Shown here piece after piece: positions 37,907-43,309 of a stretch of DNA of 64,000 bases. Position numbers and translations under genes: made by a program. Numbering within the stretch: the stretch's first letter is position 1; every line of letters starts with the position of its first letter. Source of the DNA: a virus (lineage: Duplodnaviria; Caudoviricetes); IMG/VR virus record IMGVR_UViG_3300028832_000095, positions 32,001 through 96,000 of that record; one strand, 5' to 3'. The notes beneath the pieces were generated by a model, which was not told where the DNA came from, ran no database searches, and saw only the letters and a program-made list of their open reading frames with translations.

Positions 37907-37935
37907 TTGACAAAAATGAAATAATATGTTATAAT
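37907..37935 (+). promoter_or_regulatory. Sigma-A-type promoter of the tRNA/ncRNA island
   Basis: TTGACA-17bp-TATAAT. Confidence 0.9.
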
Positions 37936-38054: not shown

Positions 38055-38127
38055 GTACCAGTAGCTCAGTTGGTAGAGCATATCCCTTTTAAGGATAGGG
38101 TCAAGGGTTCAAACCCCTTCTGGTACA
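38055..38127 (+). tRNA. tRNA-Lys(UUU)
   Basis: Acceptor gtaccag/ctggtac; anticodon arm tatcc-ctTTTaa-ggata; TTC loop. Confidence 0.92.
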
Positions 38128-38134
38128 TTTTGAT

Positions 38135-38222
38135 GGATCCTTAGCTCAACAGGTTAGAGCCAGCGTCTTATAAACACTAGGCCCTTACAAGGTATATCTG
38201 GGTTCGAGTCCCAGAGGATCCA
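38135..38222 (+). tRNA. tRNA with UAU anticodon (Ile by anticodon) and a long variable region
   Basis: ggatcct/aggatcc; agcgt-ctTATaa-acact; 19-nt variable region; ctggg-ttcgagt-cccag. Confidence 0.8.
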
Positions 38223-38229
38223 CTCAAAT

Positions 38230-38529: not shown

Positions 38530-38615
38530 GCTACTGTGATGGAATGGCAGACATGAAAGACTTAAAATCTTTTGCCGGATACGGTGTGCGGGTTCAAGTC
38601 CCGCCAGTAGCACCA
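38530..38615 (+). tRNA. tRNA-Leu(UAA)
   Basis: gctactg/cagtagc plus ACCA; aaaga-ctTAAaa-tcttt; variable arm. Confidence 0.92.
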
Positions 38616-38685
38616 ATCCTCAAATTGTTGAGGATTATGTCATTTTCGTTTTGTTGTCTCCTTTTTTACTAATCTTATCTTTTTA

Positions 38686-39319: not shown

Positions 39320-39437
39320 GGAATCTTCGTTTAAAAGTGATTAGCAACCAAAAAGAAAGACTGAATTATCAGTTTAGTTAATCCGAAGACAGTTCCTGAT
39401 CAGAACTATGTAAGGTACAAACTTACAGATTCCACCA
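39320..39437 (+). ncRNA. tRNA-like RNA (118 nt) with CCA end and greatly enlarged D-arm region
   Basis: ggaatct/agattcc-A-CCA acceptor; gtaag-gtacaaa-cttac T-like arm; agttc-ctGATca-gaact anticodon-like arm. Confidence 0.7.
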
Positions 39438-39443
39438 ATATTT

Positions 39444-39516
39444 GCCGTGGTAGCATAAATGGATATGCAACATCCTTCTAAGATGTCAGATACGGGTTCG
39501 AGTCCTGTCCACGGTA
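39444..39516 (+). tRNA. tRNA-Arg(UCU)
   Basis: gccgtgg/ccacggt; acatc-ctTCTaa-gatgt. Confidence 0.88.
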
Positions 39517-39522
39517 TGTTAT

Positions 39523-39676
39523 GTAGGAGTGGCGCAAGAGGTAAGACACACCGGATATAGAATCCGGTGGAAGAATTAAACATTGGTGAGTTCGACTATA
39601 ACCTAGGATGATGTCAGAACAAAATGTCCCTTGTTTATGATATCCTGTGTAGGTTCGAATCCTACCTCCTACACCA
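39523..39676 (+). tRNA. tRNA-Leu(UAG)-like RNA with an 81-nt variable-region insert (154 nt)
   Basis: gtaggag/ctcctac-A-CCA; ccgga-taTAGaa-tccgg; gtagg-ttcgaat-cctac; insert at 39568-39648. Confidence 0.7.
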
Positions 39677-39804
39677 ATAAGTCCAGACCCAAACTCCGTA
39701 GAACAATATGGGGTTTAAACGGGGAAAAATAAGTGATTAGCTTATGGAGAAAGGTGGACGCACTTGATGACGGTTTGCAAGGGCTTTACGTCATCCACAA
39801 ATAT

Positions 39805-39877
39805 TCCCTGTTAGATCAATCGGTAGATCAACTGACTGTTAATCAGTGGGTTGCTGGTTCAAGTCCAGCACAGGGAG
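39805..39877 (+). tRNA. tRNA-Asn(GUU)
   Basis: tccctgt/acaggga; actga-ctGTTaa-tcagt. Confidence 0.92.
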
Positions 39878-39883
39878 TTCAGA

Positions 39884-41071: not shown

Positions 41072-43309
41072 ATGGAAACATTGGCAGTAAAGTATAGACC
41101 TAAGACATTTGATGATATGGTAGAACAAAGTGTTGTAAAAGACATTTTGATGAATCATATTAAGGAGAAGAAAGTAAGAAATGGTTATCTGTTTAGCGGA
41201 AGCGCTGGCTGCGGAAAAGCACAACCTTTGTATAGCAAGGTACTAACTCCTAAAGGTTACATTGCTATGGGTGAGGTTTCTGAAGGAACAGAAGTTATAA
41301 CACATACGGGATCAGTTGCATCCGTTTCGGAAGTATTTCCACAGGGAGAACGTGACATTTATGAGATACAGTTTAGTGATAGAACAAGTATTCGTGTGGC
41401 AGATAATCACCTAAATGTTGTATATAGGTACAATCAAAATAAGAAAATGAGAGAAGATTTTGTATTAACAACAATGGAGCTTATAGAACTATTAAAAAAA
41501 TCTAAAGATAAGATTAGAGTTGACCTTCCTGTGGTTGACTTTGATAAGACGGATGTTCCAATTGATCCATATCTATTAGGTTGCTTAATAGGTGACGGAT
41601 CACTCCATAATAATTTTGGTTTTTCTAATTCAGAAAAAGATGTTATTGATAAAGTATCCGGTATAGTTAGTAAGTATGATTGTTGCTTAGTACACAAATC
41701 TGGTTGTGATTATGCTATAAGTAGAACAACAGATTCTTTTAAAAATTACTATGTTTTTGAAGGAATTACTTATAAAGGACCTTATAAATTGATTGATAGA
41801 CTTGTTGAATTGGGTTATCCGAAATTTGATTCTGAAACAATTTTACAATTATCTTGCAATAAGGCGAAGATTATAGTTTCTAGGTATCCTGAACTCATCG
41901 GTAAAATAACCAAGATAACCAATGAAAATTATAATCAGCAAAATAAACTTTTAACACTCATAAAGAATATGGGTCTTGACGTTGGATCTAAGGACAAATT
42001 TATACCGAAAGAATATCTTATAAATGATGCCAATACAAGACTTCAAATTTTACGAGGTCTTTATGATACCGATGGATATACATCGTCTGGTGGGGAAACA
42101 AGTTTCTCCACATCTAGTAAAAAACTGTCCGATGATTTTGCTTTTTTAGTTAGATCTTTGGGTTGTCGTGATACGGTTATTGTTAAAAAATGTGGATACA
42201 GAAATCCAAATGGTGATTATGTAGAGTGTAGCAATAGTTATGAGCACTATATTAAATTTCCAAATAATTTAGTATATTGTTCTTCTGAAAAACATTTAGC
42301 TAGACGTAAAGAAAGACAACACGATCCAATCAAGAGTATTGTAGATATTAAATATGTAGGAAAAGAATTTTGTCAGTGTATTTATGTAGATCATGAAGAT
42401 CATACATACATTTCGGATGATTTTATTCCTACACATAATACAACCTCGGCACGTTGTTTCGCAAAGAGTCTTAATAGTTCTATAACAGAGCTTGACGCAG
42501 CTTCCCATAGTAGTGTGGATGATGTAAGGGATCTTATTAAAGATTCAAGACTGAAACCGATGGGAACTGATTATAGAGTATACATCATAGATGAAGCGCA
42601 TTCGCTTAGTAATCAGGCTTGGCAAGCTCTACTCAAGACATTGGAAGAGCCAACACCAACAAGCATTTTTATTTTTGCTACAACAGATCCTCAAAAAATT
42701 CCAAATACAATTTTATCCAGAATTCAAAGGTATAACTTCAAAAGAATTTCACATAAAGGAATTGTAAACAGATTAAAATACATACTTGATTCTGAAAATA
42801 AGAATGGTTGTAACTATACATATACCGAAGATGCCATTGATTATATCGCAAAATTATCTGAGGGTGGTATGAGAGATTCCATAACACTTATGGAGAAGTC
42901 ATTAGGTTATTCTGATAATCTTACAATGGAATCTGTAACAAAGGCTCTCGGAACTGTTGACTATGAAACAATGTTCACACTCACGGACAGCATTTATAAT
43001 ATGGACAGAAAATGTGTTATTTCGTGTATTGAGGAAACACATAGGGAAGGTCTTGATCTAAAACAGTTTATCAAGAATTATAGCTTTTTTGTTCTTGACC
43101 TTTGTAAATATGATGTATTTAGGTCTTTTGAGTATCTTCAGATGCCGAATACATATGAAGATAGGATGAAGAAGTATACACCAGATCACTATAAGTTCTT
43201 TACAGACTTACTCAATACAGTAATGCAACTCAATACAGATATTAAATGGGAATCTACTCCGAAGCCACTTATTGAATCAACACTTGTTCTTCTTTGTTCG
43301 GAGGGGTGA
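41072..43309 (+). CDS. dnaX: Clamp loader gamma/tau subunit with intein
   Basis: LAVKYRPKTF, GCGK|TTSAR, ELDAAS, IIDEAH, LLKTLEEP, TILSR, GGMRD. Confidence 0.93.
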   Translation: METLAVKYRPKTFDDMVEQSVVKDILMNHIKEKKVRNGYLFSGSAGCGKAQPLYSKVLTPKGYIAMGEVSEGTEVITHTGSVASVSEVFPQGERDIYEIQFSDRTSIRVADNHLNVVYRYNQNKKMREDFVLTTMELIELLKKSKDKIRVDLPVVDFDKTDVPIDPYLLGCLIGDGSLHNNFGFSNSEKDVIDKVSGIVSKYDCCLVHKSGCDYAISRTTDSFKNYYVFEGITYKGPYKLIDRLVELGYPKFDSETILQLSCNKAKIIVSRYPELIGKITKITNENYNQQNKLLTLIKNMGLDVGSKDKFIPKEYLINDANTRLQILRGLYDTDGYTSSGGETSFSTSSKKLSDDFAFLVRSLGCRDTVIVKKCGYRNPNGDYVECSNSYEHYIKFPNNLVYCSSEKHLARRKERQHDPIKSIVDIKYVGKEFCQCIYVDHEDHTYISDDFIPTHNTTSARCFAKSLNSSITELDAASHSSVDDVRDLIKDSRLKPMGTDYRVYIIDEAHSLSNQAWQALLKTLEEPTPTSIFIFATTDPQKIPNTILSRIQRYNFKRISHKGIVNRLKYILDSENKNGCNYTYTEDAIDYIAKLSEGGMRDSITLMEKSLGYSDNLTMESVTKALGTVDYETMFTLTDSIYNMDRKCVISCIEETHREGLDLKQFIKNYSFFVLDLCKYDVFRSFEYLQMPNTYEDRMKKYTPDHYKFFTDLLNTVMQLNTDIKWESTPKPLIESTLVLLCSEG
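41219..42439 (+). mobile_element. Ala1 intein (407 aa) with LAGLIDADG endonuclease in the DnaX Walker A
   Basis: Starts AQPLYSKVLTP, ends CQCIYV...PTHN followed by Thr; YLLGCLIGDG and LRGLYDTDG motifs. Confidence 0.9.

Follow-up and report, generated by a model that had tools for sequence, protein, structure and literature searches.

The DNA analysed here, referred to as the window, is a 64,000-nucleotide stretch that comprises bases 32001–96000 of a 201,895-bp virus record in IMG/VR, whose completeness CheckV estimates at 84%. Its G+C content is about 33%, and its long open reading frames (ORFs) lie nearly all on the + strand. Between positions 38055 and 39878 are seven canonical tRNA genes and, in their midst, a gene for a tRNA-Leu(UAG)-like RNA of 154 nt. 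The protein genes around it form a replication and recombination module that includes RecA/UvsX, a UvrD-type helicase, an intein-bearing clamp loader (window 41072–43309, 745 aa, with a LAGLIDADG domain in the intein) and a Holliday-junction resolvase. A promoter with the full consensus sequence heads the tRNA operon and presumably drives transcription of the 154-nt RNA; a terminator-like hairpin occurs at 38615–38636, between this promoter and the start of the RNA at 39523. The features of the locus are as follows.

37907–37935, + strand: consensus promoter (TTGACA, 17 nt, TG-TATAAT; 12 of 12 matches) at the start of the tRNA operon
39443–39517, + strand: tRNA-Arg(UCU), 5 nt upstream of the 154-nt RNA
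39523–39676, + strand: tRNA-Leu(UAG)-like RNA, whole gene; class II cloverleaf with encoded CCA, 154 nt
39523–39529, + strand: 5′ strand of the acceptor stem, GTAGGAG; 7 bp, pairing with 39666–39672 (CTCCTAC)
39532–39549, + strand: D arm of the leucine type; 3-bp stem, loop with A14, A15, G18G19 and A20a
39551–39567, + strand: anticodon arm; stem CCGGA/TCCGG, unchanged between the two copies of the RNA
39556–39562, + strand: anticodon loop TATAGAA; 7 nt, A33, TAG at positions 34–36
39568–39648, + strand: variable region (giant arm); exactly 81 nt from anticodon stem to T stem, with a basal GGA/TCC stem
39590–39620, + strand: inner helix of the rod model, GTTCGAC / GTC-A-GAAC; closes a 16-nt loop (39597–39612) with the palindrome CCTAGG
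39649–39665, + strand: T arm, GTAGG-TTCGAAT-CCTAC; stem the same in the second copy, loop keeping T54, T55, C56, R57 and A58
39666–39676, + strand: 3′ strand of the acceptor stem, discriminator A (39673) and encoded CCA (39674–39676)
39804–39878, + strand: tRNA-Asn(GUU), the next gene downstream of the 154-nt RNA in both phages that carry it

The acceptor stem, T arm and CCA noted in the original prediction are indeed intact and can be read directly in 39523–39676, as can the anticodon loop UAUAGAA with A33 at 39556–39562. The 81-nt structured insert that was assigned to the variable arm occupies 39568–39648, and the alignment to the Rfam tRNA model RF00005, which runs end to end, likewise places the entire insert in the variable region. 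This match (39523–39673, model positions 1–71, 29.9 bits, E = 2e-4) narrowly reaches the family's gathering score of 29, and it does so only with permissive filters in a 401-nt search. No RF00005 match to the RNA was found in a scan of the whole window with default filters, and ARAGORN makes no call at this position, with introns allowed or not.

Relative to a canonical elongator loop (7 nt, U33, R37), the RNA has the 7-nt length and a purine at position 37 (A or G), and U33 is absent in both known copies. The variable arm of a class II tRNA-Leu spans about 10–24 nt with a stem after position 44/45; here the GGA/TCC stem is correctly placed and the length of 81–82 nt is out of range. Elsewhere in the cloverleaf, pair 11:24 of the D stem is a C-A mismatch in the window copy and C-G in the second copy.

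Outside the window, the same phage record encodes an Rnl1-type RNA ligase (PF09511, 69 bits) and, directly after it, a protein of 318 aa that combines a P-loop kinase domain (AAA_33) with an HD phosphohydrolase domain (both at G000:C1:153811-155840, equivalent to L127:1333-3362). The pair is reminiscent of tRNA or RNA repair systems such as T4 Rnl1 with Pnkp.

An orthologous RNA in a second phage

An ortholog of the same architecture lies at L005:17770-17921, on the 207-kb contig IMGVR_UViG_3300028591_000083, where it is colinear and directly upstream of tRNA-Asn. The 154-nt RNA is thus more than a chance match. The L005 copy was recovered by blastn, by nhmmer (E = 1e-50) and by a purpose-built covariance model, R1 (177.7 bits), and no RF00005 match to it was found at E <= 1 in a 6-kb scan. 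It has the discriminator A and lacks an encoded CCA. The helicases of the two phages are 78% identical, and the proteins encoded nearby range from 41 to 85% identity.

The tRNA body is 81% identical between the two copies (87% without the anticodon loop), and the variable region is also 81% identical, with 5 gap columns; the 16-nt tip loop of the rod model agrees at 14 of 16 positions. Upstream of the gene, 100 nt yield 60 matches as against 57 in shuffled sequence. All four cloverleaf stems are retained in both copies, and acceptor pair 3:70 changes on both sides, from A-U to U-G in L005. By this comparison, the 154-nt RNA is a real RNA gene under selection, with its insert subject to the same purifying selection as the tRNA body. 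Because the insert is conserved like the body while the upstream flank is at the level of shuffled sequence, the RNA does not behave as a pseudogene. The original prediction had named an insert absent from or unconserved in relatives as the sign of one, and the insert is 81% conserved in the close relative L005. Of the origins first proposed for the insert, a giant-arm tRNA with an extra RNA domain fits this pattern.

Related loci (119 from IMG/VR) were collected with the helicase, as a single sequence and as a 26-sequence profile, and the Holliday-junction resolvase as anchors. No third giant-armed copy was found among them by nhmmer or with R1, whose other matches are 71–84 nt long, the size of ordinary tRNAs, except for two weak antisense self-hits. 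Two relatives with 60% helicase identity and 16 tRNAs in the same cluster, L003 and L004, have no 154-nt RNA anywhere in their records. Exact-pattern scans of viral contigs with three conserved segments yielded no contig other than that of L005, apart from a single chance match (L002), and scans of this kind added no member from metagenome and genome contigs; at 80% identity, exact patterns have very low sensitivity. In GenBank phages, a blastn ‘distant’ search detected the flanking tRNA-Asn and nothing else. Closer helicase relatives (P0002–P0008, 66–79% identical) are listed in the protein database.

Several other differences among these related loci were recorded. The UvrD-type helicase is 421 aa long and free of an intein in the window; in L005 (L005:10001-12049) and several database relatives it is 682–711 aa long and includes intein domain PF14890. 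The spacer between the 154-nt RNA and tRNA-Asn (39677–39803) is 127 nt long, and its L005 counterpart has only 6 nt, making it lineage-specific. The tRNA-Ile(UAU) genes of the window (38135–38223) and L005 (L005:14945-15036) carry about 12 extra nucleotides in the variable region, CCCTTACAAGG, which form a small hairpin, so that a tRNA of class I acquires an arm like that of class II; this insertion is absent from the ortholog in L003 (L003:14454-14533). The anticodon loop of tRNA-Ile(UAU), CTTATAA, is canonical and the same in both phages. Variable regions have thus been expanded in two different tRNA genes of the lineage of the window phage and L005.

At L004:14060-14132, ARAGORN reports a tRNA with the anticodon CTA (amber-suppressor type, labelled tRNA-Pyl), and the same position in its close relative (L003:15103-15175) has the anticodon ACA; the anticodon may have switched, or phages of this group may possess a suppressor tRNA. 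A CTA tRNA is also present in L074. A tmRNA at L077:1514-1904 adjoins the tRNA cluster in a related complete phage record of 142 kb.

Fold of the giant arm

The basal stem of the arm (GGA/TCC in the window, GGAA/TTCC in L005) is at the normal site of a class II variable-arm stem, and hence the inserted sequence takes the place of the normal 4-nt loop. Beyond this stem, the two copies prefer different folds. The minimum-energy structure of the window copy consists of two hairpins (−38.0 kcal/mol, compared with −34.8 for a rod), and that of the L005 copy is a long interrupted rod (−40.0 kcal/mol, compared with −36.7 for two hairpins). The energies thus do not favour either model, and neither arm exceeds shuffled sequence in stability (z = −0.7 and −1.1).

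When the models are placed on the alignment, the rod shows compensation at two pairs, C-G to U-A and G-C to A-U, against two broken cells; in L005, a pair of its inner helix is U-A in place of C-G. For the two-hairpin model, the count is five broken cells, two of them in the ATGTCA/TGATAT helix, and no compensatory pair. These pair counts lean towards a modelled rod with CCTAGG in its tip loop, a lean that is not significant with two sequences (61 of 500 shuffles). RNAalifold, also run on the two sequences, gives no clear consensus.

The two hairpins of the original prediction are therefore the minimum-energy fold of the window copy and not of the L005 copy, in which ATGTCA/TGATAT, the middle helix of the second hairpin, is broken twice. 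Similarly, the T-loop-like element described in one of them, AGTTCGACT, is present in the window copy, but the corresponding sequence in L005 is AGTTTGACT, and the element can equally be read as one strand of a helix.

Anticodon loop, ancestry and leucine identity

The anticodon loop is the sole unconserved part of the RNA. It reads UAUAGAA in the window and AGCAGGC in L005, with two of seven bases in common, and position 33 is a purine in both copies (A and G, respectively). Five orthologous pairs of canonical tRNAs from the same two phages (Ile, Gln, Pro, Leu and Asn) served as a control. These pairs share 34 of 35 loop positions (6–7 of 7 in each pair) with U33 in all, at an overall identity of 59–82%, and U33 is present in each of the 12 canonical tRNAs compared in the two phages. 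Were the loop to follow the 81% identity seen elsewhere in the RNA, the binomial probability of at most two matches would be about 0.004. The conservation between orthologs that decoding would impose is thus seen at 34 of 35 positions in the controls and at 2 of 7 here, which is also about the chance expectation. The loop has probably been released from constraint, as judged from one pairwise comparison (n = 2 members) and from a pattern that diversifying selection would be expected to produce as well.

Within the loop, both copies have retained A35 and G36 and, with U or C at position 34, continue to read as Leu-CUN anticodons; position 37 is a purine in each. The non-anticodon positions that differ between the copies number four and include 32 and 38.

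In related phages, the anticodon loop of the tRNA-Leu(UAG) genes is TTTAGGT or TTTAGGA, their anticodon stem is almost that of the 154-nt RNA, and it is to one of these genes that the 5′ half of the RNA is closest. These similarities mark the RNA as a descendant of a tRNA-Leu(UAG). Each copy now differs from the related loop at 3–4 positions, changes that, on this alignment, occurred independently in each lineage after that descent. The name tRNA-Leu(UAG) originally given to the RNA therefore holds for its ancestry, with body and anticodon stem nearest to phage tRNA-Leu(UAG), and is doubtful as a statement of function, given a loop that is unconserved and lacks U33. CUN codons make up 60% of the leucine codons of the phage, and no other CUN reader was found among its own tRNAs.

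According to a review of tRNA identity, leucylation in E. coli requires A73, A15-U48, G18G19, A20a and contacts between the D loop and T loop (PMC9976931). E. coli LeuRS ignores the anticodon as well as the sequence and fold of the variable arm, and constructs lacking both arms are still charged (PMC9976931). Direct reading of both copies of the 154-nt RNA finds the leucine set complete (A73, A15-U48, G18G19, A20a, U8:A14, U54:A58, G18:U55 and G19-C56). The retention of every element that LeuRS requires supports both leucylation and processing, and the RNA is probably leucylatable on these grounds. The two parts that have been altered, the anticodon loop and the variable arm, are exactly those that LeuRS ignores. 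Neither a class Ia (LeuRS-class) synthetase nor a CCA-adding enzyme was found in the phage record, and host enzymes would consequently be needed for processing and charging.

Function of the RNA and comparison with known systems

The explanation that we favour, with moderate confidence, is that the 154-nt RNA derives from tRNA-Leu(UAG), is processed like a tRNA and can probably be charged, no longer decodes, and has the conserved arm as its working part. Its ancestor would have been a phage tRNA-Leu(UAG) whose variable-arm loop was swapped for about 75 extra nucleotides, yielding the arm of 81–82 nt, and whose decoding end was later freed from constraint. The RNA would be transcribed with the tRNA operon and excised by host tRNA-processing enzymes; processing of the host tRNA type is most likely, since the acceptor, D and T elements and the nucleotides of the tertiary contacts are intact. 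We infer that it would then be leucylated by host LeuRS. Codon reading is unlikely, because U33 is absent and the loop differs between the copies as much as unrelated sequence would. The giant arm would act as a handle for a protein or RNA partner on a stable tRNA-shaped body.

Some observations run counter to this explanation. Anticodon positions 34–36 still correspond to Leu-CUN in both copies, as a decoder would show; CUN codons are abundant among the leucine codons of a phage that has no other CUN reader of its own; and the arm is no more stable than shuffled sequence, with the copies preferring different folds.

A more specific form of the explanation, which we regard as possible and put forward tentatively, is a natural ‘aptamer-tagged’ tRNA. 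Its leucine-chargeable body would stay off the ribosome, and its 81-nt arm would dock that body, possibly together with the leucine, on a specific partner. The outcome could be the sequestering of LeuRS or of a tRNA-targeting defence nuclease, or the delivery of Leu-tRNA to a non-ribosomal acceptor. Should the arm turn out to have a synthetase, a transferase or a defence nuclease as its partner, the RNA would represent a weapon or tool of a new kind in the conflict between phage and host over tRNAs.

Searches for a partner covered several candidates. The 154-nt RNA has no match to RF02553 (Y RNA/YrlA), and no Ro60/TROVE gene (PF05731) was found in G000, G003, G001 and G002, which represent both carriers and two relatives in records that are 65–89% complete; a Ro60 partner, if any, may be host-encoded. 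Stretches of 10–11 nt complementary to the RNA, as an antisense target would provide, occur at chance level in the 202-kb phage record. A 197-aa ORF downstream was considered as a co-occurring partner and rejected, as it has homologs also in L003 and L004, both of which lack the RNA.

The strongest alternative, which we nevertheless consider rather unlikely, is that the RNA is a working elongator tRNA-Leu (UAG here, CAG in L005) that decodes CUN although position 33 is a purine, with the arm as tolerated cargo, shield or handle and with the loop changes as an escape from host anticodon nucleases. The anticodon bases and purine 37 kept in both copies would suit a decoder, as would the intact leucine identity elements and L-shape contacts, the location in a tRNA operon with CCA encoded in the window copy, and the codon usage of a phage with no other CUN reader. 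Engineered tRNAs remain active in translation when their variable arms are extended (PMC7590224), phage tRNAs have been proposed to evade nucleases through anticodon-loop changes (PMC10264068), and the phage has the repair-like pair of Rnl1-type ligase and kinase/HD protein. However, neither copy has U33, and the purines that replace it differ, whereas U33 and an almost unchanged loop are found in every canonical tRNA of the two phages. The differences at non-anticodon loop positions, including 32 and 38, and the chance level of the two loop matches also weigh against decoding, as does the C-A mismatch in the D stem of the window copy.

A special case of the favoured explanation, which we judge improbable in its own right, is a decoy or sponge for a tRNA-targeting defence nuclease or for another host factor that binds tRNA, for example LeuRS; the arm would increase affinity or prevent turnover. 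A tRNA shape without decoding constraint would be appropriate for such a role, there is ample documentation of host defences that cleave tRNAs and of the counter-measures of phages (PMC10264068, PMC13056530), and the ligase and kinase pair suggests that conflict of this kind is relevant to the phage. Nevertheless, this reading names no specific nuclease or target and gives no reason for an 81-nt arm. Furthermore, a decoy for an anticodon nuclease should mimic the host loop, yet the two loops are unlike one another and unlike that of tRNA-Leu(UAG).

Removal of all or most of the 81-nt region after transcription, in an intron-like manner or by an RNase III-type enzyme, to leave a normal-sized tRNA-Leu or two half-molecules, is very improbable. 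A removable insert had been among the original proposals, the oversized tRNA genes with conserved ‘enigmatic’ introns in Lak megaphages (PMC6784885) lend it some plausibility, and a long imperfect duplex could in principle serve a double-strand RNase. Yet a search of 39400–39800 gives no Rfam intron or ribozyme match at E <= 10, which led us to reject a group I intron or small ribozyme, and RtcB was not found in the phage record. The insert is also located in the variable-arm loop, away from known bacterial intron sites. The product of removal would still be without U33 and would have an unconserved loop, so that an intron leaves the decayed anticodon loop unexplained, and the selection on the insert (81% identity, 14 of 16 in the tip loop) points to a function of the insert itself. 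Nor does the insert derive visibly from a fused tRNA remnant, another origin first proposed, as no second tRNA match is found in it at E <= 10.

A decaying tRNA-Leu pseudogene broken by an insertion can be dismissed with near certainty: the ARAGORN blank, the D-stem mismatch, the missing U33 and the absence from L003 and L004 might suggest decay, but the RNA is 81% identical over all 154 nt to its L005 ortholog although intergenic DNA is randomised and nearby proteins fall to 41%, its four stems are kept, one of them by a two-sided change, and a pseudogene would not conserve insert and stems while losing only the loop.

The locus offers a history that can be read in the RNA itself, in which the arm that LeuRS ignores has grown about six-fold on a tRNA-Leu(UAG) and is now conserved, and the loop that the ribosome needs has been let go. 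This pattern yields the testable hypothesis that the RNA is charged, does not decode and uses its arm as a handle. Genes of this type are overlooked by standard tRNA finders and default Rfam scans.

The nearest relatives of the RNA are the tRNA-Leu(UAG) genes of related contigs (L046:14967-15051, L060:13779-13862 and L077:4267-4352), which have the same acceptor, D and T architecture. They share with it a D arm of the TGGCG..AA..GG.A.GAC type together with A73, A15 and U48. Its anticodon stem almost matches that of L046, and the variable-arm stem is at the same place. In contrast, the variable region is 81–82 nt long in the 154-nt RNA and 11–14 nt in these genes, position 33 is A or G rather than U, the loop is unconserved between orthologs, and ARAGORN makes no call.

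It has been known for 50 years that phage tRNA clusters hold stable RNAs that are not tRNAs, such as T4 RNAC and RNAD. These RNAs (species 1, 139 nt, and species 2, 119 nt, respectively) are oversized and stable, lie in a tRNA cluster beside tRNA-Arg, as does the 154-nt RNA, and have no known function (PMC3014915, PMC9697503). The T4 cluster ends with tRNA-Arg, RNAD and RNAC, and RNAC has a terminal stem and a T-arm-like GGGTTCGAATCCC hairpin. Rfam has no family for either RNA. Their best tRNA score is 17.5 bits (to tRNA-Sec, not significant), whereas the 154-nt RNA is a complete cloverleaf with one enlarged arm. On reading the T4 sequences, no common motif is apparent, and the likeness is one of position and oversize.

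In Lak megaphages, Devoto et al. (2019, PMC6784885) reported oversized tRNA genes whose introns are highly conserved and were called ‘enigmatic’. Like the 154-nt RNA, these are oversized phage tRNA genes with a conserved insert, a likeness drawn from their description only. The Lak cases were read as introns with eukaryote settings and belong to another phage lineage and host (Prevotella, with an alternative genetic code).

YrlA-type Y RNAs (RF02553, bound by Ro60/Rsr) are comparable in that they join a tRNA-like module to a protein-binding helix and occur in phages. In YrlA, however, it is the anticodon side that is replaced, whereas in the 154-nt RNA it is the variable arm that is expanded.

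A parallel to the proposed arrangement is found among engineered tRNAs with aptamer hairpins on the tip of the variable arm, which fold and function in E. coli and in which the module recruits or sequesters a protein (Mukai 2020, PMC7590224). These tRNAs are synthetic, have an allo-tRNA as their chassis and a functional anticodon loop, and carry modules much shorter than the arm of the 154-nt RNA. They nonetheless provide the working model proposed here for this RNA, in which a tRNA-shaped body would present a conserved variable arm to a partner.
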